A DNA stretch of 60,814 bases from a virus (lineage: Duplodnaviria > Heunggongvirae > Uroviricota > Caudoviricetes), in the IMG/VR virus record IMGVR_UViG_3300037418_000950; one strand, given 5' to 3'. The position numbers were made by a program, and so were the translations under genes. Under the pieces are notes generated by a model that was not told the DNA's origin, did not search any database, and saw only the letters and a program-made list of their open reading frames with translations. Positions 507 to 38,867 of the stretch are shown here, one piece after another (the first letter of the stretch is position 1; every line of letters starts with the position of its first letter).

Positions 507-3005
507 TTATTGAAGGTCTGAGGATGTGTTACTGACCAGCGCTTCGGGAGCTTGTTGCTCAACGGGGGCTGGAGTTTCATCCGCAGGTGTTGTAGCCGTT
601 TCCGCTTCGGGCGCGGTTGGCGCAGGTGGCGGTACGGCGTTTGCGTCAGCGACTGGTGCTGACACTTCTTGAGGAGACGCAGATGAAACATCTGATGTTG
701 TCGGATCAGTGGGTGCAGGTTGAACTGGCACTGGATTGGGAACAACACTTGCTGTATCCGCGGGAGCATCAGAAGATGCTGGAGCTACAACAGGTGCAGC
801 ATCAGCGGGTGCATCGGGCGTTGTGGTTGCGTCAGGTGTTGCGGGCGTTGCGTCAATCACAACTGGAGTGCTGGTTGTGTCAGGCGCGGGAGCCGTTTGA
901 TCAACTGGTGATCCAACATCCGTAGAGGTCACAACTGGTGTACCAGCGGCGACAACGGCGGTTGAAACATCCTTGCTCACATCCACACCAAGTTCACTCA
1001 AAGCCTTATCAGCTTCGGGGGTCGTCGCAACGACGATATCATGTTCATCGGGTGCCGTGACGACAGGCGTCAGAGTGGCATCCGCGGGAACTTGACCTTG
1101 CGTATCCGAGAGTACAACCTTCTTACCACTTTCGTCTTCGACTACATCAGCCTTGACGACGGTTTGAAGGGTGTCAGGAACCGCAATCGTTACAGGGGCT
1201 GCGGTCGCATCGGCGGTCGGTTGAACGACAACATCAGCGGGTGCGGCATCCTTGGTTTCTTCGGTTGCGGGCGGTGGCGGATCGGGAAGCGTCACACCAG
1301 CGGGCGCAAGTTCAATTGCATCCTTGGCTGATTGTAGAACGTCAATGCCCTTATCCTTCATTTCGGCTTGGTGATCGGCGTCAACCGCGACAACAACGTC
1401 TGCATTGCTGTCAGGCGTCTTGGCGACAGTTGTGACCACATTGTCCGAAACGATTTCGTGGGTTGAGTCCGACAGGGTGACCGTTGCTTGAGGTTCGGCC
1501 GATTGTTGATCAACAACGGGCTTCACGTCCGTGACTTCGGCGGTCACGACTTGCGGAAGCTCTTTGGGAATTTCGACAGTGGTTGTGGCCACGACCGAGT
1601 TTTGATCGTTGGTGACGACAGGCACCGTATCAGAGACAGGCGTGCTTGTCACGTCGGGAGCCGCAGCCTGGACCGCTTGCGAAATGGCCGTTGACGGGTC
1701 AACACCAGCGTTTACGAGGGTATCGTGAACTTCGGGCGGGACCGCAGCAACCACGTCGTTTTGGCCAGCCTGTGTAACCACAGGAACCAGAACGCTATCG
1801 GCGGGGATATTGGTGCCGTCCGATGGCGTCAGGGCCACGGCAGGAACCGTGCCTGAATTGTCGGCTTGCACCGCAGTCGTCACGTTGACGACAGGGGTTA
1901 GGGTGTCAGGAACTTGGACTTCGACCTTGGGGGCGTCCACATTGTTGTCTGCCACAGGAACAGGCGTAGTGTCTGTTACGACAGGGGCAGGCTCAACGGG
2001 GGCCACCGAAACGTCGGGATGATCGAGTGCAGCACTGACAGAAGCGGGAATATCAATTCCAGCGGCATTAGCGGCTGCCACTGTATCAGGTGACATTGCC
2101 ACCACCACATCAGGCTTGCCTTCATCGGTTTTTACAGTCGTTAGAGTTGCGTTATCCGATACTTCGTGAGTCGCGTCCTGCAACGTCACGGTTGCCTGGG
2201 GTTGGTCAGATGAATTGCTGACGCTTGGAACCACGTCAGAGACTGTAGCTTCGACAATCGGCGGGACGACAACAGGTGTGTCCACCGTGACCGTAGGTGC
2301 CTTGGCCGTATCGTCATTGACAACAACTTGCGTTGTTTCAGGGGCGGTTTCGACGGGGGCAGGTGCGGGAGTATCAGCTACAGGAGTATCAACAGGCGCG
2401 GGTGCTGGAGGGGTCACCACCGCGGCCTGTTGATCTTCGACCGTTGGGAGTTCCAACGGCACAGCCACTTCACTGTTCGGGTCGGAACCCGTAGGAATCA
2501 TGACAGGCGAACCTGCCGAGTTATATTCCACAGTGTAAGGTACATCGGACTTTGGCAATGGTCCGATAGGAAGCGTTGTTAATTCCCTCGGAGAATTGGT
2601 ATCTGTGAAGACGACACTGAGAATGCCATCATCAAGATTTGCTTCCTTGAAGGCGAGGTTACGAGCAACCAAGAACTTGGCCGAGACCTTACCACCAGCA
2701 AGAATACCTTGATGGAAATAAACGTCGTCGGATGCGCTGGTTGAATCGAAGCCAACATTAGTCGTCGCTTCGATTGTTAGGTGTTTGGGATCAAGGGTTG
2801 CCTTGATATCCTTGCGATCTACCCCTGTAAGGTCAAGCTCAAGAGTATAACCACCGTCTGAGGTTTTCTTGATATTGTAGGGCGGGATCGCGGTTACGTC
2901 TTCGACAGATGTAGCATCATCTACACTGTCAATTAAATCCAGAACTGGATCAAAGCCAATGCCGAGCTTACCGACATATGACTTATATCCTTTACTTTTA
3001 GCCAT
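507..3005 (-). CDS. Hsp20/IbpA-like small heat-shock domain fused to ~700-aa acidic Pro/Val/Ala/Thr/Asp-rich repeat region
   Basis: N-terminal IGFD...PPYNIKK...YTLELDLTGVDRKDI...YFHQGI...ANLDDGILSVVF (alpha-crystallin pattern); four internal ~90-aa repeats. Confidence 0.8.
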   Translation of the reverse strand: MAKSKGYKSYVGKLGIGFDPVLDLIDSVDDATSVEDVTAIPPYNIKKTSDGGYTLELDLTGVDRKDIKATLDPKHLTIEATTNVGFDSTSASDDVYFHQGILAGGKVSAKFLVARNLAFKEANLDDGILSVVFTDTNSPRELTTLPIGPLPKSDVPYTVEYNSAGSPVMIPTGSDPNSEVAVPLELPTVEDQQAAVVTPPAPAPVDTPVADTPAPAPVETAPETTQVVVNDDTAKAPTVTVDTPVVVPPIVEATVSDVVPSVSNSSDQPQATVTLQDATHEVSDNATLTTVKTDEGKPDVVVAMSPDTVAAANAAGIDIPASVSAALDHPDVSVAPVEPAPVVTDTTPVPVADNNVDAPKVEVQVPDTLTPVVNVTTAVQADNSGTVPAVALTPSDGTNIPADSVLVPVVTQAGQNDVVAAVPPEVHDTLVNAGVDPSTAISQAVQAAAPDVTSTPVSDTVPVVTNDQNSVVATTTVEIPKELPQVVTAEVTDVKPVVDQQSAEPQATVTLSDSTHEIVSDNVVTTVAKTPDSNADVVVAVDADHQAEMKDKGIDVLQSAKDAIELAPAGVTLPDPPPPATEETKDAAPADVVVQPTADATAAPVTIAVPDTLQTVVKADVVEDESGKKVVLSDTQGQVPADATLTPVVTAPDEHDIVVATTPEADKALSELGVDVSKDVSTAVVAAGTPVVTSTDVGSPVDQTAPAPDTTSTPVVIDATPATPDATTTPDAPADAAPVVAPASSDAPADTASVVPNPVPVQPAPTDPTTSDVSSASPQEVSAPVADANAVPPPAPTAPEAETATTPADETPAPVEQQAPEALVSNTSSDLQ

Positions 3006-3870: not shown

Positions 3871-4002
3871 TTATTCGACTTTCTCATTGTCATCCAACCA
3901 TTTTATCAAGATACCCCATCCTGCTAATACCAAGAATAACAAGAAGGGCGAATAGGAAAACAATTGCCAATAGAAGTCGTAATAGACTTTCAATAGTTCC
4001 AT
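3871..4002 (-). CDS. 43-aa single-TM protein (below ORF-track cutoff)
   Basis: Hand translation MELLKVYYDFYWQLFSYSPFLLFLVLAGWGILIKWLDDNEKVE; fills the gap between tRNA and next gene. Confidence 0.55.
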   Translation of the reverse strand: MELLKVYYDFYWQLFSYSPFLLFLVLAGWGILIKWLDDNEKVE

Positions 4003-4017
4003 GATATATCCGAAAAT

Positions 4018-4092
4018 TGGTGTCCCTGGCCAGATTCTAACTGGCAACCGATCCGTTTAGAGTGGATTGCTCTAACATTGAGCTACGGGGAC
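4018..4092 (-). tRNA. tRNA with CUA anticodon (amber suppressor), encoded CCA
   Basis: GTCCCCG-TA-GCTC-AATGTTA-GAGC-A-ATCCA-CT[CTA]AA-CGGAT-CGGTT-GCCAG-TTAGAAT-CTGGC-CAGGGAC-A-CCA; 75-nt cloverleaf, U33, A15:U48, U19-A56. Confidence 0.85.
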
Positions 4093-4259
4093 TTAAGAGG
4101 TTCAATCGATGATCGTTGCGTGCTGTCAATTTTGACATTCGATGCGCCGAACAACCATTTCAAAAAATCGTCTCGGGATATTTGAATTTTGTTTTTATAT
4201 AACCCATCAGATACTTCAATAGTCATATAGACAGGATCAAAAGTAACCTCGATATGCAT
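4083..4259 (-). CDS. 58-aa hypothetical protein whose TAG stop lies inside the suppressor tRNA
   Basis: GAGGGG SD then ATG at 4259 (MHIEVTFDPVY...); stop equals tRNA positions 8-10. Confidence 0.55.
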   Translation of the reverse strand: MHIEVTFDPVYMTIEVSDGLYKNKIQISRDDFLKWLFGASNVKIDSTQRSSIEPLKSP

Positions 4260-4275
4260 TTTCCCCTCGAAACAT

Positions 4276-4384
4276 TGGAGGCCCGTTAGCACCTAATGGG
4301 TTGTTTCGTTGGATTGAAACAGTGATCCATAAGATACCCCACACGTCTATAGCCGCTACAAGGACTTCTTATACGCGACGGGCC
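4276..4384 (-). ncRNA. Putative 109-nt structured RNA with tRNA-like acceptor stem and 3' CCA
   Basis: 5' GGCCCGT pairs perfectly with 3' ACGGGCC followed by T-CCA; internal hairpin TGTTTC-AATCCAAC-GAAACA; within tRNA cluster. Confidence 0.55.
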
Positions 4385-4397
4385 AAGCGCGTAATTC

Positions 4398-4472
4398 TGG
4401 CACAGGAGGGGCAGAGTCGAACTCCCATCAACGGGTTTGGAGGCCGTTGCTTTACCGTTAAGCTACACCTGT
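4398..4472 (-). tRNA. tRNA-Trp (CCA anticodon)
   Basis: ACAGGTG-TA-GCTT-AACGGTA-AAGC-A-ACGGC-CT[CCA]AA-CCCGT-TGAT-GGGAG-TTCGACT-CTGCCC-CTCCTGT-G-CCA; G73; a few mismatches and a T-stem bulge. Confidence 0.85.
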
Positions 4473-4479
4473 ATAAAAC

Positions 4480-4565
4480 TGGTAGCGGAAGCGCGATTTG
4501 AACACGCGTGGATCACCGTATGAGGGTGCGCTGGGGCCTGATTACCTCTCCAGACTATTCCGCGA
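4480..4565 (-). tRNA. Atypical tRNA with CAU anticodon (Met/fMet/Ile2 unresolved), enlarged D region
   Basis: CGCGGAA acceptor with C1 mismatch, CT[CAT]AC loop, GCGTG-TTCAAAT-CGCGC T-arm, ACCA end; 86 nt. Confidence 0.7.
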
Positions 4566-4570
4566 TAAAA

Positions 4571-4629
4571 GGTGATGACAAGGATACTTCGGTGTGGAAG
4601 GAGGTGATGTGAATATCCCCGTCATCACC
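4571..4629 (-). ncRNA. Late-promoter-proximal 18-bp hairpin displaying anti-Shine-Dalgarno sequence in its loop
   Basis: GGTGATGAC/GTCATCACC (9 bp) plus GGGGATATT/AGTATCCTT (9 bp incl. G-U); loop CACATCACCTCCTTCCACACCGA. Confidence 0.55.
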
Positions 4630-4631
4630 AG

Positions 4632-4639
4632 TATTTATA
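4632..4639 (-). promoter_or_regulatory. Late promoter TATAAATA driving the RNA cluster
   Basis: Exact consensus 2 nt upstream of the hairpin. Confidence 0.75.
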
Positions 4640-4656
4640 ATACCAAATTTTTGGCA

Positions 4657-6054
4657 CTATGTCAAGCTACTTCTGACTTTCTTCTGTAGGCTTGAGAACG
4701 AATGTCTGGCATATACGATGCCTGAGTCATAGACGGCATCGAGCCCCGACGTGATACGACCAGCCTTCGATGCCTTTGACTTATCCGTTGACGGATTTTT
4801 CGATACAGGTTCCCATTCATCCACATTATCAAACGAGATAGCATTGCACTTCATGGCGAAGCTCAGAGTATCACGATTGACTTTTTGAAGTAGAGCCCCG
4901 CCCATACCGAACACCACATTCTCAGCCGACCAGCCTTTTGCTGTTACAGCATAGAGGATATCATCTATGGAGAAGTAATTAATCCCATCACCTTGTATAA
5001 CTCGTACAGAAGGGTGCAGGACTTTGTAACCAAGGGAGTTTGTGGTGTAACCGAAATGGTTGCCAAGTGATGCAATAATACGAGGTACGAGGTCAACAGG
5101 GTCGCCAGAATCAGGACGGACAACAATGCGACCGCCTTTGTCCAAAATTTTGTCATGAAGAAAATCCCCTATAATGTTGTCCACGGCATTCATCGTGTCA
5201 TAGCTATCGATGACAACCGCATAGATTTTTCCTTCACCGCCGAACTGATCAATCATATTCGAGTAGGCATCGGACTCGCGAGTCTGACCCCATGAGGTAA
5301 TGGTGGCGTGCTCGGCCGCGGGAATTGAGTATCCCGCAATGTAATCCGTTATGAATGGACCTTCTGTGCGGTTCTTTGCATCAAAATGGAATTCGGGATA
5401 CCACCGATCCGCATCATATAAAGCTTCTATAGTATCGCTACCATTAAAAGAAAGCAAATGAGCCATGCCCCCGAGGCCAGCGGACTCTGCGCTTGATACG
5501 CCTCTATCACCAAAATCGTGTAGAGCAAAATCCAGAACCCCTTTATTAGCTTCGTCAACAGATTCATCCCAATATCTTTTCATCATCTTCTTGATTGAAT
5601 AGGACAGCGTTGCCACCGTCGTCGGGTACCAGATGGCTCTAAGCATCGCCGTTTCGAGGTAGCTTGTTAGCCACGGCACCTGAGGATCAGTGTTGCGGAC
5701 CTGGACCAGAGGCGTACCGATATCGACAACCGAGCCTTCTGGGATGGATTCAATGAGAAGCGGTAAGCGGCCTTCGTGTTCGGCAAAGATATGCCGCCAG
5801 CCTGCCTCATTGAACGGAACGCCATGCAAGCCTGCCACCTTTTTAGCAAGCTCAATATCACGCGGCAGGAATGTGCCATCCATCAAGTATTTCTTGATGA
5901 ACGCCTGCAATCCAAAGAACACTACCTTGTCGGTACGAATTTCCTTGGGATTGGTTTTACGAGCTTCAATGTAGGAAGAAACGTATTTGGTACCTTCTGG
6001 ATATTGAAGGTAATGACTCCATTTGTACGAGTCACTGTGTTTGATAATATTCAT
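4657..6054 (-). CDS. nadV: Nicotinamide phosphoribosyltransferase (NAMPT/NadV)
   Basis: SDSYKWSH, HDFGDRG, SIPAAEH, VVRPDSGDP, IQGDG, FGMGGALLQKVNRD motifs. Confidence 0.93.
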   Translation of the reverse strand: MNIIKHSDSYKWSHYLQYPEGTKYVSSYIEARKTNPKEIRTDKVVFFGLQAFIKKYLMDGTFLPRDIELAKKVAGLHGVPFNEAGWRHIFAEHEGRLPLLIESIPEGSVVDIGTPLVQVRNTDPQVPWLTSYLETAMLRAIWYPTTVATLSYSIKKMMKRYWDESVDEANKGVLDFALHDFGDRGVSSAESAGLGGMAHLLSFNGSDTIEALYDADRWYPEFHFDAKNRTEGPFITDYIAGYSIPAAEHATITSWGQTRESDAYSNMIDQFGGEGKIYAVVIDSYDTMNAVDNIIGDFLHDKILDKGGRIVVRPDSGDPVDLVPRIIASLGNHFGYTTNSLGYKVLHPSVRVIQGDGINYFSIDDILYAVTAKGWSAENVVFGMGGALLQKVNRDTLSFAMKCNAISFDNVDEWEPVSKNPSTDKSKASKAGRITSGLDAVYDSGIVYARHSFSSLQKKVRSSLT

Positions 6055-6107
6055 TTTCGAAAACTCCTTTCGAGAAAATAACCTTTGGTCTATCCATCGG
6101 TTGTTGA

Positions 6108-6114
6108 TATTTAG
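6108..6114 (-). promoter_or_regulatory. Late promoter variant CTAAATA upstream of NAMPT
   Basis: Same heptamer precedes gp13, gp18, gp19, gp22 and gp23. Confidence 0.5.
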
Positions 6115-6380
6115 TCAGGATAACCAGCCGCGCCCGTTGGTTGAAATTTCGCATCACGATATGTAGTCTTATTCGGATCAATATATCGTTTGAAATATAT
6201 CTGTAGATTATGGGCGCGGTCGTCTCTCTGTAATTCGAAGTAACGCTTGAGTGCATCGCTTTCATTTATAAACGCATAAACCCTACGATCATAAGGGTCT
6301 CGAGCGTCGCCTTCATATTCACATTCAACACAAAAGGCTTCGTTAGTCTCAACCGTAGAAGTTATTGTGAATTTATTCAT
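6111..6380 (-). CDS. Hypothetical protein
   Basis: 89-aa ORF, ATGA-coupled to macrodomain gene. Confidence 0.7.
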   Translation of the reverse strand: MNKFTITSTVETNEAFCVECEYEGDARDPYDRRVYAFINESDALKRYFELQRDDRAHNLQIYFKRYIDPNKTTYRDAKFQPTGAAGYPD

Positions 6381-6838
6381 AGTTCGTAGACTTTCACTTT
6401 GACACCATTTCGTATCAGCGTTGCATTGATAATAGCTTCGATAATGGTCCAGTCGCCACCACCGAGACCCGCGCCGATTTTAGGCATAGCCACTTCAGGA
6501 ATGTTATTATTCGAGATAGCTCGAAAGCACCGTTCGACGGCATCATAAGAGACGAAGCGATCACCATTCTTGCCATAGTAGTCCTGAGTGAAACAATTCA
6601 GAATGTGAATATCGCCATCGGTCCATTCGACTATGCGACCAAGTAAAAGCGCGGAATCTTGAGGTGGCCCTAAATTGTGGTGCTTCTCACAATAATTAGA
6701 GTATGCCTTAAAACATTCGGGATAGAGTTCGCGAACCGTCTTGGCGACACCCGATCCCATGACGCCTTGACAGTTGCAACCATGGGCAATGTATTTGCAG
6801 TCAGTGTCGAACAAATCACCCTTGATGTATTCAATCAT
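6377..6838 (-). CDS. Macrodomain (Appr-1-p processing / ADP-ribose hydrolase-like) protein
   Basis: IKGDLF, AHGCNCQGVMGSGVA, MPKIGAGLGGGDW motifs. Confidence 0.9.
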   Translation of the reverse strand: MIEYIKGDLFDTDCKYIAHGCNCQGVMGSGVAKTVRELYPECFKAYSNYCEKHHNLGPPQDSALLLGRIVEWTDGDIHILNCFTQDYYGKNGDRFVSYDAVERCFRAISNNNIPEVAMPKIGAGLGGGDWTIIEAIINATLIRNGVKVKVYEL

Positions 6839-7173
6839 AGTTTGCCATAGCTCGCGGTTATTTGTGGTTCATCGTAAGTCAGGTTGGGTTTGAATTTTGC
6901 GCGTAGGGCCGAGAGAAACATCTTCGATAGACGCATCTTTCGTTCTTCTTCGTCGGGATATACCGAGAAATCATATTCCCACCATTGATAGGGACACGGA
7001 CCTTCACCACACAAAGGACAGGTGCCTACTTTGTGTGTCCATCCATGTTCGCAATAATGACAAACCTGATAGTCTTCAAGAAGCACCCCGACCGTACAAG
7101 GAACATGTTCCTTATTGATCCAGACGCGTTTCTTGGTGATGGAAGTTGTTTCGGATTTCTTTTTTCGTGCCAT
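6835..7173 (-). CDS. Hypothetical Cys-rich (Zn-binding-like) protein; likely start 7173
   Basis: CHYC...CPLC motifs; TAATG coupling with upstream ORF. Confidence 0.65.
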   Translation of the reverse strand: MARKKKSETTSITKKRVWINKEHVPCTVGVLLEDYQVCHYCEHGWTHKVGTCPLCGEGPCPYQWWEYDFSVYPDEEERKMRLSKMFLSALRAKFKPNLTYDEPQITASYGKL

Positions 7174-7520
7174 TACCGCAATGCCTTCAAAATGTTGATG
7201 CACTCGTTATAGATGCGACCAGAATCGATGCTGTATTCTTGTTGGTTGCGATAGTACATGAGTGTCACAACATCCAACATACGATTGGCATATCCCATGG
7301 CCTGGACGTGTGCGGGACCTTCCCAATTATGTTCACCCTTTTTGACTTCATAATCCCATGGGTCGGACAACGTAATTAATTGATGGTCTTTAAGATAAAG
7401 CGCAAGTTGCTTGTCCATAGACAGCTTCTTGACTTCATCCCGTCGCCGTTTCGCCTCAACAAGAGACGCTTCCAAAGTATCGATATGCTTGGTTAGGCTT
7501 TCATAACTTTCGAGTGCCAT
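7173..7520 (-). CDS. Hypothetical protein
   Basis: 115-aa ORF with GGAG SD. Confidence 0.7.
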   Translation of the reverse strand: MALESYESLTKHIDTLEASLVEAKRRRDEVKKLSMDKQLALYLKDHQLITLSDPWDYEVKKGEHNWEGPAHVQAMGYANRMLDVVTLMYYRNQQEYSIDSGRIYNECINILKALR

Positions 7521-7523
7521 TGT

Positions 7524-7856
7524 CTACTCCATAAAACGAAATGCGATTGGTTTGCCAATGTTGCGGGCGTGCTGAACTTCCATTTCGACTCCCGTGGATT
7601 CATGCCATCCATCGAGCGCCAGAACCCACAATTCTTGACACGCATCAATCATGGCCTTGTCGAAATGTTCCCAAAACGCAAACTCTTTCGGTAAGTCAAA
7701 CTTCGCCGCCAGCGGATGGCAATGCACGATTGGGGAATAGATCACGAACCCTTCATTGATTTTTCGGGCGGTGAATTCCAGAACCTTTTCGTAGCGGTGT
7801 TCGACCACCTTGGGATCGGCATGAGTGTAGGGAGAAGATACAAAAATGAAGCTCAT
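7524..7856 (-). CDS. DUF1937 / nucleoside 2-deoxyribosyltransferase-like protein (likely start 7856)
   Basis: FVSSPYT...YSPIVHCHPLA...MIDACQELWVLALDGWHESTGVEMEV pattern; GGAG SD before MSFIFV. Confidence 0.7.
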   Translation of the reverse strand: MSFIFVSSPYTHADPKVVEHRYEKVLEFTARKINEGFVIYSPIVHCHPLAAKFDLPKEFAFWEHFDKAMIDACQELWVLALDGWHESTGVEMEVQHARNIGKPIAFRFME

Positions 7857-7884
7857 AGGTTTCTCTTGATTACTGCGACGGGTG

Positions 7885-8061
7885 TTATTGGTTTGTAATA
7901 TACAACCACACAAATGCGAACGCGATGGCGATATAAAGGAATAGGTTCCAACCAATATCAAGCCATGCTGCATACAGCATTAGGCCAGTGGCAATTAGAC
8001 AAGTGCCGATGATGGCGAATACGATGCTCCAGGCAAAGACATTGAGAATGTTGAATATCAT
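7885..8061 (-). CDS. 58-aa 2-TM membrane protein (below ORF-track cutoff)
   Basis: Hand translation MIFNILNVFAWSIVFAIIGTCLIATGLMLYAAWLDIGWNLFLYIAIAFAFVWLYITNQ; ATGA overlap with upstream ORF. Confidence 0.6.
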   Translation of the reverse strand: MIFNILNVFAWSIVFAIIGTCLIATGLMLYAAWLDIGWNLFLYIAIAFAFVWLYITNQ

Positions 8062-8309
8062 ACTTGAGGCCCGAGTGTAATTTTTTCAAGAATGTCACGA
8101 AGGGCTGCCAATTCCCCTTGACGGCAACCATTTTCAAAACCGTCTGAGTAACAATCATCGTAATTACCATGACTGTATGGTATACCATCTTCATCTATTG
8201 AAATACCGTAGAAGCTATTCACATGCGGATTTTTTTCCTTGTGTCGTGCAAGTTGTTCCTCAATATCTGCAATATGAAATTTCAAATAAGCGACAATATC
8301 AATAGTCAT
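8058..8309 (-). CDS. Hypothetical protein
   Basis: 83-aa ORF with AGGAG SD. Confidence 0.7.
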   Translation of the reverse strand: MTIDIVAYLKFHIADIEEQLARHKEKNPHVNSFYGISIDEDGIPYSHGNYDDCYSDGFENGCRQGELAALRDILEKITLGPQV

Positions 8310-8331
8310 TCTGTATCTCCTGTAGTTGTTT

Positions 8332-9366
8332 CTAAAGTCCTACCATTGCTTGGATCATGGAAAAATGATCCTCAAAAAACTTGTCACGGTTCAATACGAC
8401 TTCGGCGTAGGGAACCCAGAAAGCCTTATCCGCGTCGTCGCTTCCTTTGACTCGGGGTAAGTCAAAACCATCATTGAGCTTGATATCGAAGCATTCGGTG
8501 ATAGTGCGTCCCCTAGTCGAGCGGTTGGGATTGTCAAAGACTCGGCGGCCTGTAATGCTTCCCTTGATGACAGGTTTGGGCACATCGATTCGGGTTTCTT
8601 CGTAGAGTTCACGTATCACCGCTTCTTCAAGGGATTCGGTTTGATTGACAAAGCCGCCAGGGAGCGCCCATAAACCTTCCCCAGGTTGATCGCGACGCGT
8701 CACTAATAGAAGGTGCCCCGACTGTCTTACAACGGCGTCTACAGTCACAAACGTCGGTGGGTAAGGAGCTTTCTCCCAACCCTTCTTATAATCGCGAATG
8801 TGTTCATATTCTCTTACGAGACGCTTGTATTCATCAGTTTCGTCCCACGCCAAAAGCCATTCATAAACTGCATCCGTGGCACAATACGATTTCCAAACTT
8901 TTAGATTATCTTCAAACAATGCCTTGCGGAAGTCGGTCGCGTTCTGCCCGTTGATAGGCGTGATCGAGACGAATTCATATTGGGGGAATTTCTTGAGATA
9001 GTAAGTGGTATGATCTTTGTCATACCCGATGATGCCGACCGTCTTACCATCGGCGGACCACGGTTCATTGAGAATGAGGGTATTGACCGATGCCTGAATC
9101 GAAGCAATCCAACGGTCATCATTATACATGTAATCGACTTGAGGGACAAAACGAATTCGTTGACGTTCCTCGGGTTTCAGAGACAATGTGATAAGTTTGA
9201 TACGTTCTTTGGTAGAGAAGGGATCGCGAATGTCGGCGGCTTTTTGATCCGAGCCAATGACCATGATCAAGGTTTCACATATTTCGAGAGCTTTGCGAAT
9301 GACGTGAACGTGACCGCAGTGAATAGGTTGGAATCGTCCAATATAGACGAGATAATCGTGTTGCAT
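8332..9366 (-). CDS. Bifunctional NMN adenylyltransferase / ADP-ribose Nudix hydrolase (NadM-Nudix, NatV-like)
   Basis: IGRFQPIHCGH (HxGH) N-domain; Nudix box GGFVNQTESLEEAVIRELYEET; GSDDA motif. Confidence 0.93.
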   Translation of the reverse strand: MQHDYLVYIGRFQPIHCGHVHVIRKALEICETLIMVIGSDQKAADIRDPFSTKERIKLITLSLKPEERQRIRFVPQVDYMYNDDRWIASIQASVNTLILNEPWSADGKTVGIIGYDKDHTTYYLKKFPQYEFVSITPINGQNATDFRKALFEDNLKVWKSYCATDAVYEWLLAWDETDEYKRLVREYEHIRDYKKGWEKAPYPPTFVTVDAVVRQSGHLLLVTRRDQPGEGLWALPGGFVNQTESLEEAVIRELYEETRIDVPKPVIKGSITGRRVFDNPNRSTRGRTITECFDIKLNDGFDLPRVKGSDDADKAFWVPYAEVVLNRDKFFEDHFSMIQAMVGL

Positions 9367-26236: not shown

Positions 26237-27622
26237 TTACATGATATTTTTTACGATAGTTCTACGGTAGAACACGTTGCTGTCTTTAAGGATCGAACCT
26301 TGGTTCGCGGCCGAAAGACCCTGAGCAAACGGGTTAGACGCCATACCGTAACGAGTCATGTAGCCGATCTTCGGATGGAATGATCCTGGATCAACGGCAG
26401 TGAAGCGTTGCAGCGGAACATACGGGCAATAGAACAGACCAGCGTCATAAGGAGTTGCGCCCTTATAACCTACTGTGAAGTAGTTGAGGCCAGGAGTGCC
26501 CGCGAGAATAGCATCAGCATACGGGTCGATATAGACCTTGATCTTGCCGTTCAGGACGCCGACGAAGGTGTTACCTGTGTCGTCAACTTCACCAGAAACG
26601 GTATTCAATGCAGGGGCGTAGTCGAGGACGCCAGCGGCTTGTAGGCACGATGCGATATCTGATGAACAGATAAGGATGTTGCCCTTGCCACGACGGGTTT
26701 CCTTGGCGACACGGTTGCATTCGCGGTCAAGGTGGAACCAAAGACCCTTGAACTTTTCAACCGACCAACGACCGTTAGAGTCGGTGTCGAGGTCGAAGAA
26801 GCCTGCGGTTGTGACGTTTTCTTGAGAACCTTGCTTCGCAGTGAAGTTGATCGTGCGAACAATTTCACGGTTGATTTCAGCAAGAAGTTCCTGAGTGATG
26901 ATCGAGCTAAGTTCTTGATCAGCGTCCAGACCATGGACGGCCTTCAAGTCTTGCGCGATTTGGATAGTGTAGTCGCCCTTTAGGTTACGTTCCTTCGCCA
27001 ACACTTGGTTGCGAGTGATCGTGAACGACATTTCAGGCCATGCAGTATTGCCATCCGTGCCCAAGGCTTCGCCCTGTGCCGTAGACATACCAGAGCCGTA
27101 GTTGTAAAGACCAACTTCGGCAATGTTAGCATCAACGCTGGAGTTACCAGGAAGATAACCAACCTGCTTTTGACCAGCAACGTTAGCGCCCGAAGTAACC
27201 GTTGACCAAGTAGTATCAACTTCATTGAAGAAAGTTTGGTTATAGGTTTGGTTGGCGTAAGTAGGACGTAGAGCGAAGACCAAGCCCGTAGGACCAGTCA
27301 TAGGCTGAACGCCGAGAACGTCATAGGCCATGAGGTTCGGAGCGGTACGACGGACCATGGAAATCATGATCGGGTCGAACGTGTCGATGCCACCAGCACC
27401 TGGGGTAGAAGATGAGCTACCCATGAAGTTCACGGGAATGCCAGCTTCGTTTAGGGTTTGGGGCGCACCAGAGGCACCAGCTTGTGCCAACTCGATTTCG
27501 CTGTTTTCCAGAAGAATGGCAGTTACCTTCTTCTTGTATGGGTCGGTGATCTTAGACTCGTTAGAGTCTTCAAGAACGGGTCCCCATTTCTTTACTAGCG
27601 CTCTAGTATCATATTGTCTCAT
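26237..27622 (-). CDS. 23: Major capsid protein gp23
   Basis: LVKKWGPVL, FDPIMISMVRR, GVQPMTGPTGLVFALR, AQDLKAVHGLDA, GLFYCPYVPLQ. Confidence 0.97.
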   Translation of the reverse strand: MRQYDTRALVKKWGPVLEDSNESKITDPYKKKVTAILLENSEIELAQAGASGAPQTLNEAGIPVNFMGSSSSTPGAGGIDTFDPIMISMVRRTAPNLMAYDVLGVQPMTGPTGLVFALRPTYANQTYNQTFFNEVDTTWSTVTSGANVAGQKQVGYLPGNSSVDANIAEVGLYNYGSGMSTAQGEALGTDGNTAWPEMSFTITRNQVLAKERNLKGDYTIQIAQDLKAVHGLDADQELSSIITQELLAEINREIVRTINFTAKQGSQENVTTAGFFDLDTDSNGRWSVEKFKGLWFHLDRECNRVAKETRRGKGNILICSSDIASCLQAAGVLDYAPALNTVSGEVDDTGNTFVGVLNGKIKVYIDPYADAILAGTPGLNYFTVGYKGATPYDAGLFYCPYVPLQRFTAVDPGSFHPKIGYMTRYGMASNPFAQGLSAANQGSILKDSNVFYRRTIVKNIM

Positions 27623-32078: not shown

Positions 32079-33734
32079 TTATTTCTTACCTTTAGACTTC
32101 CCTTTAGTCTTCGGCGGCGTTGCTTCGGGAAGCGGTGGCGGCAGGGACAATGTAGGTCCCCCACCTTGACCCATCGGCGGTCCACCAGCATCATCGCCCA
32201 TCGGGTCGCCCATGGCGTTCAGGGGTTGTGCAAACTGTGGATTGCCCATTTCAGCGGCAATCTGTTCGTCGTTGCGCTTAATGTCGTCATCAGTCTGACG
32301 TAGGATTGTCTTGCGAGCTTCTTCATTCGAGACAAAGCGCCCAATGTAAGGATCGAGCAATTGCAAAACGGCCAAACGGTTTTGCCAGATTTCTTGATCT
32401 TTCAGTTCGGCAAAGTCATTGTCAGAATGATATTTGAACTTGATGAAATACTTGATTTGGTCCCATTCTTCAGGCGTAACGATACGCTTCAGGACCAATT
32501 GCTTTTCCAAAACGTCAACGAAGAGTTTGTTAAAGCGTTTGCGAAGTCGGTTCACAAATTTGGAAAAGTTTACTTCATCATGATTGATTTGCGTCGACCG
32601 TCCGATATCATAGGCATACTCGGGATTGAGACGCGAGACAGGGACTTGTAGAGAATTGTAGAGTTTGAATTCAAAGTATTTAATATCGTCGATTTGACCA
32701 AGATTACCCGCAGGCGGCAAGGTTTCGATCTGAGTGGACTTACCCCCTTCACGACGCGGGATATAGAAGTCCTCAAGCATCGTCATGAAGCGACGGGCAT
32801 CCTGCGTCTCGCCCGTTTCCGCGTTATAGAGAAGTTTGGACTTGTGTTTGGCGATAATGTCCTGAACGTATTGTTGCGCCTTGGCATGGGGCATATCACC
32901 CACGTCAATGTAGAACACGCGCCGTTCAGGAGCCCGTGACAGTCGATAGATGACACAAGAGTCTTCCATCGAGCGCAGACAGTTCAGAGGTTTGATGGCC
33001 TGATGCAGGAATGACAAGATCATCGTGCCTTGCGAGTTTAGTTCCTCAGAGGTGACGTAGACAATCGCGTCTTTAGCAATCTTCACACCATTGTTAGTCG
33101 GCTGCCATGTAGACAACGGATTGCGGTTCGGTCCCGTCGAAAGAGACTTTTCCGAATAGACGTAAAATTCCTGTTCAACCTTTTGCAGCACCACTCCAGG
33201 CTTGTTCTTGTCCTTGAGGTTTCGCATCTGACGTATCTTGCGAACCTTACGCGGATCGAGATAGCGTAGTTCCTTGATGCCTTCGTTGGGTGCGGCAGGA
33301 TCGACTAGAATGAGATAGTACAGGCGACCATCCACATACCAGCGACGGAAGATTTGGTAATCGCGATGATCGAATTCGAGAAGCCTTAGGACTTCGTCAA
33401 ATTCGTCGGTCATCTTCTTTTTAAGGGAGTCGGGAATAGGACAGTCGTCCAAAAGCATTTCAACGGTCTTTTCACCGTCTTCCGAGACAATAGCCTCATT
33501 GACAATTTCGTTGACAGCCTTGGCGACTTCGGGATGTTGAAGCATGTCCCGATATTTTGAGACAAGTTCGGATTCGTTTTTGACAGAGCCTTCAAGGTCC
33601 AGAAACGTGCCAGTGGCTAACGGACCTGGGGATGAAACAATAATCGCGCCGTCGTCAATATTTGGCGGCGCGATTGAAGGCAAAGGTTCAGATGATTTGG
33701 GTCTATTTAGGATAAACCCAATTAAATCAGCCAT
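32079..33734 (-). CDS. 20: Portal protein gp20
   Basis: GIKELRYLDPRK, LRSMEDSCVIYRLSRAPERRVFYIDVG, MLEDFYIPRREGGKSTQIETLP. Confidence 0.97.
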   Translation of the reverse strand: MADLIGFILNRPKSSEPLPSIAPPNIDDGAIIVSSPGPLATGTFLDLEGSVKNESELVSKYRDMLQHPEVAKAVNEIVNEAIVSEDGEKTVEMLLDDCPIPDSLKKKMTDEFDEVLRLLEFDHRDYQIFRRWYVDGRLYYLILVDPAAPNEGIKELRYLDPRKVRKIRQMRNLKDKNKPGVVLQKVEQEFYVYSEKSLSTGPNRNPLSTWQPTNNGVKIAKDAIVYVTSEELNSQGTMILSFLHQAIKPLNCLRSMEDSCVIYRLSRAPERRVFYIDVGDMPHAKAQQYVQDIIAKHKSKLLYNAETGETQDARRFMTMLEDFYIPRREGGKSTQIETLPPAGNLGQIDDIKYFEFKLYNSLQVPVSRLNPEYAYDIGRSTQINHDEVNFSKFVNRLRKRFNKLFVDVLEKQLVLKRIVTPEEWDQIKYFIKFKYHSDNDFAELKDQEIWQNRLAVLQLLDPYIGRFVSNEEARKTILRQTDDDIKRNDEQIAAEMGNPQFAQPLNAMGDPMGDDAGGPPMGQGGGPTLSLPPPLPEATPPKTKGKSKGKK

Positions 33735-34422: not shown

Positions 34423-34703
34423 TTGTTTACACCTGAGGTATCAGAGCCTGATGTGCCTCTAAGTTTTCTCTTTCCAGAGAGAATATCATTGCGCCATTTT
34501 CTAAGATTTTCGGCTTTTTTGGGTCCAATGTTCCCATCAGATGCGTAACCAATAGCTTTACCTGTTGATGTAAGAGCCGCGATCCCTACGCGAAGTTTAT
34601 CTGGGGCATAGGTGCGGACCATATGCTTTTTAATTGCATTGGCCTGAACACCTACGTTGCCCCAGATTCCTTCATCGATTAGGAACCGTTTGAAGGCTCC
34701 CAT
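34419..34703 (-). CDS. Small basic protein with capsid-targeting-like N-terminus
   Basis: MGAFKRFLIDE start; inserted between gp18 and gp19. Confidence 0.55.
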   Translation of the reverse strand: MGAFKRFLIDEGIWGNVGVQANAIKKHMVRTYAPDKLRVGIAALTSTGKAIGYASDGNIGPKKAENLRKWRNDILSGKRKLRGTSGSDTSGVNN

Positions 34704-37042
34704 TAGACACCAGCGCCAAGCTTCCCAACTACCTCGCTGAACGACACCGCAGTACCAACCGCGACGAAGTTCAGAGTGATGTAGTTGATCGAGCGCGCAG
34801 GCTTAATGTAGATATCACCAACAAAGCTATTCGAATCGATAACCGCTGGAGTGTTATTTGTTGCGTCACAAATAACGTCAAAAGCATAGATACCACGACG
34901 GCCTTGAACATCGCGCAAGTATGGGTTGACCATGTTGCGGAATTGGGCGCGAGTGAAGTCATCATTGAATTCAAACAGGCTAAAGTATGAAGCTCTAGCG
35001 ATGGCCTTTTCAAGGACGATGAACAGACGACGGACGTTGATACGGTCGAAGGCTGACGACTTCGTTAGAAGAGTCTTGTCGCCGTTCAGGTACGTGCCGT
35101 TACCTTGTGTCGAGATAACAGGGTTGACGTTATTCTTGTAAAGGAAGTCACGTTGAGCTTGGCGCGGGTTCCAAGATAGTCGGATGACATTCTTGATTTG
35201 GCCACGCGTAAGACCAGCGGGTGACCACCATGGATCGTTGGTAAAGTCGGTACGGGCGCATAGACCAGCCATGTCGCCGTTGAGAGGAATCCAACGGTTC
35301 ACGTCGTTGTACTTGTCATACATGTACTTGTAACCGCTATCGAGCACACCGTATGAGGTGACGCGAAGGTTGTTACGGAAGTCTACAACGTCGTAGATTT
35401 CCTCACCCTTGTTGTTCACAACGTCGTCGTAATCGGGCGAAATGAAAACAACACAGTCCTTGGGATTTCTAAGTTCTGCGACATTATCGAGAATGTAGTT
35501 GGCCATTTGCGTCTTGTTAGAAACAGGATCACCCTTGGCCTTACCAGCGATAAGAAGCGAAACATCTACGTCTTCGCTTGAGGCGAACATATCCCAGGCA
35601 AGGGCCAGCGTACCGACCGACACATCACTTTCATCAGGACCGTTGGAACCACCGATCATTCTCATGTCGAGAGGTGCAACACCTGTAGATGATGTTAGGA
35701 ATTCGGCTGTGTTAGAAACCGCCGTGGTGCGGTCGTTAGCCCACCAGATGTATGCCGACTTTTGGTTGATGACATTCTTGTAGTAGTTTGTTTCACCATT
35801 GTCGTTTTTGGCATCTGTGGCACGCGAGACGTTCTTATAGGTCTCAAGCACTGTGCCTGGAGACCCTGTGAACGCACCGCCTTCGTCAACAACAACTACG
35901 TGCAGTTCGTCATTGGCTGACGTGTTGCCGTGTAGAAGTTGCCAATTGGATTGTGACGGAACAGTTTCGGTTTCACGATAGAATTCCCAGAAACGAGTGA
36001 CGTAACCAAGCGCGACGTTTGACGACAGTTTGACTTCATCGTCAGTTGTAAGCTGGACGGTAAAGACGTTGCCCGATGAGGTAACGTTGCCGACAGTTGT
36101 AATCTTGAGGAATTGGAAACCAACCTTGGTGTTGCCAAGTTCGATAAGATCGTTGACGGCAAGAGTCGCCTGGACCGAACCTGCCAAAGTGTTGGCGGCC
36201 GTGACGTTGGTAGAGTTGGAAGTATCCTTCGGAACGACCGTGATCGTCAGAGTATTCGAACCAACATTGCCAACAAGAAACGTTCCCGTTGCGTTGATTT
36301 GAGCATTGGGTGTCAGTGAGGTGTTGGATTTGAATTGGCTGGCGCTATCGCAGACCGAGACGCGGAGTGAATTGCCGTAATCACCAGGATAACGGGCGAC
36401 ATACAGCGACGCGGGGTCGAAGGCCGCGACGCGTGAGTTATAGTCATCTTCATTTTTGACGACCAGAGAGTCCCAATCGGCAATGTCCGAACCATCGTAG
36501 TTGAGGTCGGATTGTAGAGCCGCGGCAGTCAGGGCGATATCATCGCGGAAGACGACGGCGGCAGATTGGACGTTGGCGCTGGCCGATCCAGAAAGCGTGA
36601 CCGTTGTCGAATTGACAGCCGAAATGGTGGCCCCAATCGGTAGACCCGCGGCGTTTGAGAAGAACAGTTTCATACCAACGTTGAGGTTGGTGGTATTTGA
36701 TAGCTGCATCACATTGTTGCCGCCCGCCATTACGAAGTTAGACGAGTTGCCAGTGTAAGAGGCGGCGATGGTGTTGCCTGTGGTGTCGGCGGCGCGGACA
36801 AGCCAAAGCGTATCAGTGTAGCTTAGGAACGACGCGCCCGAGAACCATGTTTCGGCGTTGAAGTTTGATGGCTTACCAAAAGTGCTTACAAGCGTATCCT
36901 CGCTGTCAACCAGTGTGCGAAATTCAACTGGACCCCATGGAAAGACGCCAGCCATAGCGCCAGGGGATGCGGAGACCGCCTGAATGGCGGTTGTAAGGTC
37001 AAATTCTCTTACTGCTACTCCAGGCGAAACTAAAGTTGTCAT
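34703..37042 (-). CDS. 18: Tail sheath protein gp18
   Basis: LVSPGVAVREFD, FPWGP, WWSPAGLTRG, FDRINVRRLF, IYIKPARSINYITLNFVA. Confidence 0.97.
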   Translation of the reverse strand: MTTLVSPGVAVREFDLTTAIQAVSASPGAMAGVFPWGPVEFRTLVDSEDTLVSTFGKPSNFNAETWFSGASFLSYTDTLWLVRAADTTGNTIAASYTGNSSNFVMAGGNNVMQLSNTTNLNVGMKLFFSNAAGLPIGATISAVNSTTVTLSGSASANVQSAAVVFRDDIALTAAALQSDLNYDGSDIADWDSLVVKNEDDYNSRVAAFDPASLYVARYPGDYGNSLRVSVCDSASQFKSNTSLTPNAQINATGTFLVGNVGSNTLTITVVPKDTSNSTNVTAANTLAGSVQATLAVNDLIELGNTKVGFQFLKITTVGNVTSSGNVFTVQLTTDDEVKLSSNVALGYVTRFWEFYRETETVPSQSNWQLLHGNTSANDELHVVVVDEGGAFTGSPGTVLETYKNVSRATDAKNDNGETNYYKNVINQKSAYIWWANDRTTAVSNTAEFLTSSTGVAPLDMRMIGGSNGPDESDVSVGTLALAWDMFASSEDVDVSLLIAGKAKGDPVSNKTQMANYILDNVAELRNPKDCVVFISPDYDDVVNNKGEEIYDVVDFRNNLRVTSYGVLDSGYKYMYDKYNDVNRWIPLNGDMAGLCARTDFTNDPWWSPAGLTRGQIKNVIRLSWNPRQAQRDFLYKNNVNPVISTQGNGTYLNGDKTLLTKSSAFDRINVRRLFIVLEKAIARASYFSLFEFNDDFTRAQFRNMVNPYLRDVQGRRGIYAFDVICDATNNTPAVIDSNSFVGDIYIKPARSINYITLNFVAVGTAVSFSEVVGKLGAGV

Positions 37043-37112: not shown

Positions 37113-38867
37113 TTAGAAGAAGATGCGAACCGTATCGGGTTCTTTTTCATCCAATACCCAACCTTCAGGATTATTTGGTCCGATGAGTGCATTGGTTTTT
37201 TCTTCGGGTGTCTGTTGCCCTGTATAAATCGTCGCAAATGGCACCAGGGCATCGCGAGTTTGTTGCTCGGATCGGCCGCGTAGACGTGCCAGAATATCTA
37301 CGTCGGTTAAGTCGCGGAAATAGACTTGTTCGGTAATCCAGCCGAATAGAACCAGCCCCATGACAATATCGTCGGTGGCTCCTTTTTCGGCTTGGTACGT
37401 CTGATTTTTCTTAGAGAAGCGGGTAAACTCATAGATGGTTTGTTCGTCCCAAATCTTGAGTTGTTCCGTTTCGACAAGTATCTTGATCATGCCGCAACCT
37501 TCGGTCTTCACCGTCTTGGTTGTGCGGATGCCAAGTTCATGGGGTTTGTCAGAGAACCCGCGCGAAATTTTCTTGGTTTGGAAGCGTGCCGCCTCGGTGC
37601 GGATTAGGTTCTCATATTCCTTTTCATGATGCAGAATATGCAGCACCTGAGACCCGATGGAATTCAATTCAACCAGGACGGCTGCCCGATTGTAGAAAGC
37701 CCCAATGGCATAGATGACTTCGGCGTAGTCGAGGGGTGTCAATTCATTGGAACGATAGACGCACACCTGTTCGAACGGCTTGGTCGTCACATCAATGACA
37801 CTGAATGCCGAGTAGTCGAGCCCCTTACCTTCCGAAACGTCGGCAATCAGCATGTAGGTGTGACCTTCGATAGGCTTGACGTATTGCTTCAAGCCTTCGC
37901 GTTCGAAGATCGGTTTCTTGACACATTTTTGAGTCAGATGTTGCAGACACGCGCCCGAGAGAAGCGTACTTGTCGAACCGAGAAATTCAACATTGTGTTC
38001 TTGGTCAAACAGACCTTGGTCATTACCAACGGCGGCCAAGGCTTGCTTGCGCCATTTTTCATCGCGACCAGGAACGTCGCGCCATGTGACCTTGATTGGA
38101 TTGAACTCGTTCCATTCATCAGCCACCTCAGGATCGGCGTGACCTTTTTTCTGCGAGTCGTTCCAAAGTTTGTGGAAGTGATTGAGGCCGCGCGGCGTCG
38201 AAACAAGTACAGCCTTCGTGGTGTTGGTTGAGGTAATCGTGTTATAGGTTGACGGCCAGAATTCTTCCCAATTGTCAACGAAGGCCGCTTCGTCCACAAA
38301 CAGCAAGTCCACCGCATAACCACGGATAGAGTCGGGAGACGTTGCTTCGGAAATGGCACGCGAGCCATTGGCCAACTCGAATGAGGTCTTATTCCAGTCG
38401 CGCACCCCAGGCTGCATCCATAGTGGTAGCGACGCATAGGCCACCTGGACCTTGCGTAAAATTTCCATGGCAGTCTTACCCTTGTTGGCAAGAAAGGCCA
38501 CGGTTGGTGATTTACCGTCGAATAGGAGATACCAGAGCACATAGGCGCAAACGACCGTTGACTTACCAGCCTGCCGTGCCGTTGCGAAGATGTTGAAACG
38601 GTTATCCTTCATGTTATAGATCATGTCTTTTTGGTAAGGATAAAGCTTGATTGGAACCAAGCCTTCACCCTTGACCATGATCTTCATGTATTTTTCGGTG
38701 AAGTAGATAACATCATCGGCGCACTTCGCGAGTTCCGCGACCATATCGGGAGTCCATTCAATCTGGACTCCCTCGCGCTTGATCATTCGGTTGCCGCGGT
38801 AGCAGCGGTATTCGATTATCTGATTATCAAAATCTTCATGACCATCGGGTAGATGTATATTACTCAT
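37113..38867 (-). CDS. 17: Terminase large subunit gp17
   Basis: LYPYQ, ARQAGKST, LLFVDEAAF, VSTPRGLNHF, ADVSEGKGLDYSAF, DDIVM. Confidence 0.97.
   Translation of the reverse strand: MSNIHLPDGHEDFDNQIIEYRCYRGNRMIKREGVQIEWTPDMVAELAKCADDVIYFTEKYMKIMVKGEGLVPIKLYPYQKDMIYNMKDNRFNIFATARQAGKSTVVCAYVLWYLLFDGKSPTVAFLANKGKTAMEILRKVQVAYASLPLWMQPGVRDWNKTSFELANGSRAISEATSPDSIRGYAVDLLFVDEAAFVDNWEEFWPSTYNTITSTNTTKAVLVSTPRGLNHFHKLWNDSQKKGHADPEVADEWNEFNPIKVTWRDVPGRDEKWRKQALAAVGNDQGLFDQEHNVEFLGSTSTLLSGACLQHLTQKCVKKPIFEREGLKQYVKPIEGHTYMLIADVSEGKGLDYSAFSVIDVTTKPFEQVCVYRSNELTPLDYAEVIYAIGAFYNRAAVLVELNSIGSQVLHILHHEKEYENLIRTEAARFQTKKISRGFSDKPHELGIRTTKTVKTEGCGMIKILVETEQLKIWDEQTIYEFTRFSKKNQTYQAEKGATDDIVMGLVLFGWITEQVYFRDLTDVDILARLRGRSEQQTRDALVPFATIYTGQQTPEEKTNALIGPNNPEGWVLDEKEPDTVRIFF

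Follow-up and report, generated by a model that had tools for sequence, protein, structure and literature searches.

A conserved tRNA gene of the amber-suppressor type in standard-code T4-like phages of soil and rhizosphere

The stretch of viral DNA analyzed here (60,814 nt, hereafter the window) carries on its minus strand, at 4018–4092, a tRNA gene with anticodon CUA, the amber-suppressor type. It probably encodes a functional phage tRNA that reads UAG, and it is the last gene of an operon that appears to be conserved in a clade of T4-like myoviruses from soil and rhizosphere using the standard code. Amber-suppressor tRNAs of standard-code phages have already been described (XacN1) or annotated (DLP6), and by comparison with its orthologs the gene of the window adds to this known kind a new and well-conserved family from soil T4-like phages. 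Suppressor tRNAs in standard-code phages are often annotated and still unexplained. The present family comprises five natural versions, diverged in sequence but fixed in synteny, with clear covariation and a conserved promoter; hence, it is a good substrate for the study of the role of such tRNAs, of the amino acid they carry, and of the free exchange of the elbow pair.

Fold and conservation of the tRNA gene

Of the three tRNA genes that ARAGORN identifies in the window, all of them minus-strand, one is the 75-nt gene at 4018–4092 (anticodon cta). Rfam RF00005 matches the same positions with 58.5 bits (gathering score 29, E = 4e-10) over the full model (positions 1–71). This agrees with a first-pass annotation of the sequence, which had placed a 75-nt cloverleaf with an encoded CCA and the loop CU-CUA-AA at these coordinates and had named ARAGORN as a check. 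Its fold and coordinates stand, although it mentioned neither the minus strand nor two mismatches. In the minus-strand reading, the gene is a class I cloverleaf with a 7-bp acceptor stem (GUCCCCG/CAGGGAC, with a C6·A67 mismatch), a D arm with a 4-bp stem and the D-loop AAUGUUA, an anticodon arm with a 5-bp stem (containing an A31·C39 mismatch) and the 7-nt loop CUCUAAA with U33 (anticodon at 4058–4060, minus strand), a 5-nt variable loop, the T-loop UUAGAAU, A73, and the encoded CCA. A15 and U48 are both present, and the pair A15:U48 and the discriminator A73 had been correctly noted before. The run A36-A37-A38 is the usual context of i6A37 in tRNAs reading UNN codons, and by analogy A37 is probably isopentenylated. 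ARAGORN labels the gene tRNA-Pyl, which is simply the tool's name for anticodon CUA. The architecture of pylT includes a 6-bp anticodon stem, a 3-nt variable loop, a small D-loop, and no T-loop consensus. The gene at 4018–4092, with its 5-bp anticodon stem, 5-nt variable loop, and T-loop of the type UUNGAAU, is not a tRNA-Pyl.

Contigs of relatives were fetched via homologs of two neighboring proteins, the nicotinamide phosphoribosyltransferase (NAMPT) encoded upstream and a 163-aa protein encoded downstream. A JGI contig identical to the window (L003) has the same two tRNAs. In four further metagenome lineages, a tRNA-Trp(CCA) followed by a tRNA(CUA) occupies the same syntenic place after NAMPT: L012/L013 (NAMPT 83% identical), L015 (63%), L016, and L017. 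Another relative, L014, is absent from the tRNA comparison because its contig stops short of the tRNA site. Where these lineages have the tRNA-Trp and the tRNA(CUA), the more distant contig L019 carries tRNAs for Gln, Glu, and Met, and the NAMPT relatives at 42–53% identity in IMG/VR have no tRNA nearby. Downstream of the tRNA, all relatives have a conserved protein that in the window has 832 aa (507–3005, minus strand), with an Hsp20-like N-terminal domain and a long tail of no known family; used as a query, this protein found no related loci.

The loop CUCUAAA, A73, and CCA are identical in all five orthologs, as is most of the acceptor stem, which is unchanged in four lineages. The D, anticodon, and T stems vary by paired changes, the D and anticodon stems being variable among the lineages in which the acceptor stem is not. 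When the cloverleaf and the pair 19–56 are considered together across the five tRNAs, 93.6% of the cells are paired and 9 of the 22 pairs are changed on both sides. Such a degree of pairing is reached in none of 500 shuffles, and it drops to 29–45% when the structures are slid by one to three columns. The flanks have diverged between lineages while the tRNA(CUA) has been kept, and the orthologs are not recent copies of one sequence, since the mean column divergence is 16%. These comparisons indicate that the tRNA(CUA) is real and under selection, and a role in translation is in keeping with the conserved anticodon loop, A73, and CCA. The two A·C mismatches and the noncanonical elbow pair could instead suggest that the gene is decaying and acquired its CUA anticodon by chance mutation. 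This is highly improbable, as CUA is kept in five lineages, nine pairs show compensatory double changes, and the C6·A67 mismatch is itself conserved in four lineages (L015 pairs 6–67, yet has A2·C71).

The outer pair of the tRNA elbow is the conserved G19-C56 (PMC7912444). In the window it is replaced by U19 in the D-loop (4075, minus strand) and A56 in the T-loop (4038, minus strand), as the first-pass annotation had observed. Among the five orthologs the pair is U-A in four and G-C in the most distant one, L015; hence, the exchange is a true covariation. The earlier argument that a compensatory change at two sites speaks for selection rather than decay is therefore borne out, as the orthologs keep CUA and 19–56 covaries. 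Homologs with a sense anticodon and lacking the covariation, which would have spoken against it, are not what the orthologs present. The exact combination of D-loop and T-loop has no match in a scan of IMG/VR. In a metagenome scan the same loops occur in phage-like tRNA arrays, in the genes for tRNA-Asn and tRNA-Lys; other tRNAs of these arrays have A19 with U56. A further IMG/VR scan yields at least 126 unique CUA tRNAs, and among the matches listed 120 have C56, four U56, and two A56. All six of the listed tRNAs without C56 carry the complementary base at position 19. Because of these arrays and this census, an elbow other than G19-C56 appears to be uncommon but recurrent in phage tRNAs and, among the matches listed, always compensated.

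The phage, the operon, and its neighbors

Gene content and habitat indicate that the window belongs to a T4-like myovirus from soil or rhizosphere. All its long ORFs are on the minus strand. PHROG profiles match, over essentially their whole length, the major head protein (26237–27622), the portal (32079–33734), the tail sheath (34703–37042), and the large terminase (37113–38867), as well as a scaffold, a helicase, and a nuclease of the gp46/47 type. By its major head protein, the closest phage in GenBank is the Stenotrophomonas T4-like phage DLP6 (58% identity), followed by Caulobacter, Sinorhizobium, and Methylophilales phages and by cyanophages. A megablast of 6 kb against GenBank phages gives no match. 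The DNA of the window occurs in soil and rhizosphere metagenomes, runs with only a small share of its words being left out of this statement.

Directly upstream of the tRNA operon is a NAD-salvage set (4657–9366, minus strand), which comprises NAMPT (4657–6054), a macro-domain protein, a DUF1937 or nucleoside deoxyribosyltransferase-like protein, and a fusion of NMN-adenylyltransferase and Nudix domains (NadM-Nudix, 8332–9366). The set resembles the pathways of NAD reconstitution with which phages counter NAD-depleting defences. Downstream of these genes, the putative operon has the order promoter, leader, tRNA-Trp, short ORF, and tRNA(CUA). The promoter lies directly after the stop codon of NAMPT (4637–4665, minus strand). 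It has the form TTGACA-17 nt-TATTAT with TG before the second hexamer, and matches the consensus at 11 of 12 positions. It overlaps TATAAATA (4632–4639, minus strand), a motif of the T4-late promoter type. In L012, L016, and L017 the spacer differs, but both hexamers and TATAAATA are retained, and the promoter would therefore be of a host type conserved in four lineages, including the window.

The tRNA-Trp(CCA), with G73 (4398–4472, minus strand; found by ARAGORN and Rfam), is the upstream partner of the suppressor in the predicted transcription unit and precedes the tRNA(CUA) in L012, L015, L016, and L017. In the window it is atypical, with 39.7 bits, U6·U67 and C31·C39 mismatches, and a bulged G in the T stem, and its orthologs are far more diverged than those of the suppressor. 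As the tRNA-Trp carries G73, the suppressor is not derived as a copy of this neighbor.

Between the two tRNAs there is a 58-aa ORF (4083–4259, minus strand; gene call on L003), whose TAG stop is formed by U8-A9-G10 of the suppressor. Its product shows 50–60% identity in L012 and L016, with the same KSP-stop end. One may thus consider that the mRNA of this ORF is coupled to tRNA processing, and that the tRNA(CUA) has a role other than decoding, either as a processing or regulatory element of the operon or as a decoy or substitute substrate for a host defence nuclease that targets tRNAs; the position of the gene beside a NAD-salvage set is in line with the latter. We consider such a role unlikely, given that the anticodon loop, A73, and CCA are strictly conserved, as would be expected of a tRNA active in translation, and that no candidate nuclease or partner is apparent.

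RNA-seq contigs from four rhizosphere libraries match the tRNA and its flanks without differences (for example, one covering 4012–4191 includes the whole tRNA), although such contigs show neither strand nor ends and may reflect DNA carry-over. In none of the four runs do they cover 4512–6200 (NAMPT), and this gap was not used to place a transcript start.

Two other stretches of the operon resemble RNA elements. About 109 nt between the tRNA-Trp and the short ORF (4289–4397, minus strand) are conserved in L017 (314–448); their ends pair (GGCCCG...CGGGCC) and are followed by UCCA, and they have no match in Rfam. The stretch at about 4473–4560 (minus strand) resembles an initiator-type tRNA(CAU), with the start CGCGGAA, the loop CUCAUAC, the T arm GCGUG-UUCAAAU-CGCGC, and the end ACCA. 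Its D region is aberrant, and it is called by neither ARAGORN nor Rfam. A permissive Rfam search of 3950–4700 gives no family for RNA-like stretches beyond the called tRNAs.

Genetic code and the place of UAG

The reading of the genetic code covers the window of about 61 kb, from a genome of at least 125 kb (the longest contig has 125,202 bases). The stop codon is TAA in 44 of its 70 ORFs of at least 100 aa, TGA in 20, and TAG in six. Three of the latter are spurious, being nested within longer ORFs; the real ones are only NAMPT, DUF1937, and the Nudix fusion, all at 4.6–9.4 kb and all in the NAD-salvage set. Compared with the PHROG profiles, the major head protein, portal, sheath, terminase, gp46/47, and helicase are full length in code 11. 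Treating TAG as a sense codon joins a single pair of substantial ORFs, DUF1937 and the following ORF of 115 aa (7173–7973, minus strand). This second ORF is in frame, one codon after the TAG, and the fusion would have 266 aa. It has its own ribosome-binding site, GGAG six bases before the ATG, and the arrangement is absent from the relatives. Because TAG as sense fuses this pair only, the second ORF has its own ribosome-binding site, and the pair is not conserved, the window uses the standard code. The first-pass annotation had likewise read the core genes as intact in code 11, which the full-length PHROG matches and the stop counts bear out.

The first-pass annotation had gone on to propose targeted suppression, and this part is not supported. 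The NAMPT stop is TAA in L012, L014, and L015; that of the Nudix fusion is TAG, TGA, or TAA according to the lineage. Neither these TAG stops nor the in-frame extensions after them are conserved in the relatives. Among all the TAG-ended genes of the window and its relatives, and their in-frame continuations, we found no conserved read-through extension and thus no target. As after DUF1937, the TAG stop of a gp44-like clamp-loader gene in one relative (L014, 1499–2659) is followed in frame by a further ORF, of 64 aa.

One could envisage a true partial change of code, with genes elsewhere in the genome, such as those for lysis or tail, carrying in-frame TAG and needing the tRNA. In recoded phages, suppressor tRNAs do accompany in-frame TAG codons of late and lysis genes, and the tRNA can appear beforehand in relatives that use the standard code (10.1101/2021.08.26.457843); TAG is rare as a stop in the window, and the window spans at most half of the genome. 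We nevertheless hold this to be improbable. No conserved gene of the 61-kb window was seen to be interrupted by TAG (head, portal, sheath, terminase, and tail-fibre-like genes included), so that the mark of code 15, in-frame TAG in conserved and mostly late genes, is lacking there. By gene calls, the contigs of relatives encode full-length DNA polymerase, UvsX-like RecA, and DnaB-type helicase.

If, as we favor, the tRNA(CUA) is a tRNA reading UAG in a phage of standard code, then, since its CCA is encoded, it would be released by the host RNase P and 3′ trimming and charged by a host synthetase. The charged tRNA would compete with release factor 1 at UAG and lead to partial read-through, which would affect host messages and a small number of accessory phage genes. 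The structural and replication genes would be insulated from it because none of them ends in TAG. Perturbation of the host, extended isoforms, buffering of amber mutations, and a first step toward recoding are candidate benefits. In laboratory amber suppressors (supE and supF of Escherichia coli, psu of T4), a single CUA tRNA likewise competes with release factor 1. These are laboratory-selected mutants of sense tRNAs, whereas the tRNA of the window is a natural gene kept across diverged lineages. Borges et al. proposed that suppressor tRNAs precede recoding and that standard-code relatives can gain the tRNA first (10.1101/2021.08.26.457843). By confining TAG stops to accessory genes, the T4-like soil phages would be in the state proposed to precede the recoding of stop codons.

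Charging, affinities, and known suppressors

The resemblance of the acceptor stem to Arg-type tRNAs, suggested by the first-pass annotation, does not hold. Arginine identity needs A20 and C35 (PMC9976931); all orthologs have U35, position 20 is U, A, U, G, and U among them, and the nearest relatives are T4-type tRNA-Ile(CAU). Lysine identity involves U35 and A73, with U34 or C34 and U36 (PMC9976931, PMC1483225). Amber suppressors with U35 insert lysine, and the change of A73 to G73 shifts them toward glutamine (PMC9976931). Suppressors derived from tRNA-Ile2 also insert lysine, according to a passage of PMC1483225 that cites Normanly et al. In the five orthologs U35, C34, and A73 are invariant, with A instead of U at position 36. 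The glutamine elements of E. coli are U1-A72, G2-C71, G3-C70, G10, Y34, U35, G36, A37, U38, and G73 (PMC1483225). Only 4 of these 10 are present (G10, C34, U35, and A37), the tRNA having G1-C72, U2-A71, C3-G70, A38, and A73, and by this set its identity is not tRNA-Gln-like. Given U35 and the invariant A73, charging by LysRS is the most likely and by GlnRS the second under the identity rules of E. coli, which may not apply to the synthetases of the phage's own host. LysRS recognition does not account for the invariant acceptor core C4-G69/C5-G68.

Among 50,697 phage records, the best full-length matches of the tRNA(CUA) are tRNA(CAU) genes of T4-like phages (72–80% identity), the one of T4 being annotated as tRNA-Ile. 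Similarly, four of the five orthologs have T4-type tRNA(CAU) genes as their nearest neighbors in a local set of 139 phage tRNAs. The best matches of L015 are other suppressors at 73–74%, within the range of unrelated tRNAs. Sequence similarity does not discriminate among isotypes of origin. The window tRNA has no blastn match in E. coli genomes. When IMG/VR is scanned for tRNAs with this acceptor type, further CUA tRNAs appear in contigs of 31–360 kb; one of these, L061, has 80–82% identity to the E. coli tRNA-Ile(CAU) next to mug. The window family shares with tRNA-Ile2 of T4 and E. coli (ileX type) the acceptor GNCCCNG/CNGGGNC, a similar D arm, and G1, C3-G70, C4-G69, C5-G68, C34, A37, A38, and A73, and the T4 copy also has a mismatch at 6–67. 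Unlike it, tRNA-Ile2 has the anticodon CAU (lysidine-AU) and the canonical G19-C56, and it decodes AUA. Since all orthologs have CUA instead of CAU, the family is possibly a descendant of the tRNA-Ile2 lineage but not a member of it. The marks of that lineage C4-G69, C5-G68, and A73 are invariant in the five orthologs. Among the matches listed from the at least 126 CUA tRNAs, the CC/GG acceptor core is the commonest class (32 tRNAs), an enrichment that is not established, as about 10 of the 32 come from the acceptor-constrained scan.

Such a descendant might retain the recognition elements of tRNA-Ile2, so that TilS would convert C34 to lysidine and thereby direct the tRNA to UAA rather than UAG, or the tRNA would be a substrate of IleRS. 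The similarities just given are compatible with this, as are the acceptor stem, invariant in four lineages, and the presence of C4:G69 and C5:G68, the dominant TilS identity elements in E. coli (PMC12514573, PMC1635315). With lysidine at position 34, the tRNA would be specific for UAA, a natural ochre suppressor bearing the anticodon of an amber one; if IleRS acted via the acceptor stem, isoleucine would be inserted at a stop codon. We regard both as quite unlikely. A similarity of 70–80% between tRNAs is weak evidence of descent, the passage from CAU to CUA takes two changes, and an ochre reader would hit the phage's own genes because TAA is their main stop codon (44 of 70 ORFs). IleRS depends on A35 and U36, which counts against its charging a tRNA(CUA).

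Among known phage suppressors, the Xanthomonas jumbo phage XacN1 has two amber-suppressor tRNAs, for which no target gene was found (PMC5852040), and an opal suppressor tRNA is reported in Atu_ph07. The tRNAs of XacN1, DLP6 (KU682439, "tRNA-Sup-CTA"), and Aeromonas phage Akh-2 are, like the one of the window, class I tRNAs with the loop CUCUAAA in code-11 genomes. They are not orthologous to it; the window family belongs to a small operon that follows NAMPT and includes tRNA-Trp, and its elbow pair is U19-A56. The suppressors of crAss-like and Lak phages (code 15) share with it the anticodon CUA, the probable charging by a host synthetase, and the rarity of TAG as a stop (10.1101/2021.08.26.457843; PMC9523058). 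These phages differ in having in-frame TAG in their structural and lysis genes, where the window shows none. In the region of DLP6 examined, none of the 45 core (structural and replication) genes ends in TAG. The tRNA-Sup-CTA of DLP6 (L026, 2608–2682; DLP6, 113763–113834) is not orthologous to the window tRNA and differs from it in having the acceptor GCGCGAU, G73, and a canonical elbow and in belonging to an array of 37 tRNAs. In an IMG/VR contig (L063, 10321–10475), two different CUA tRNAs are found in tandem, one with A73 and the other with G73.
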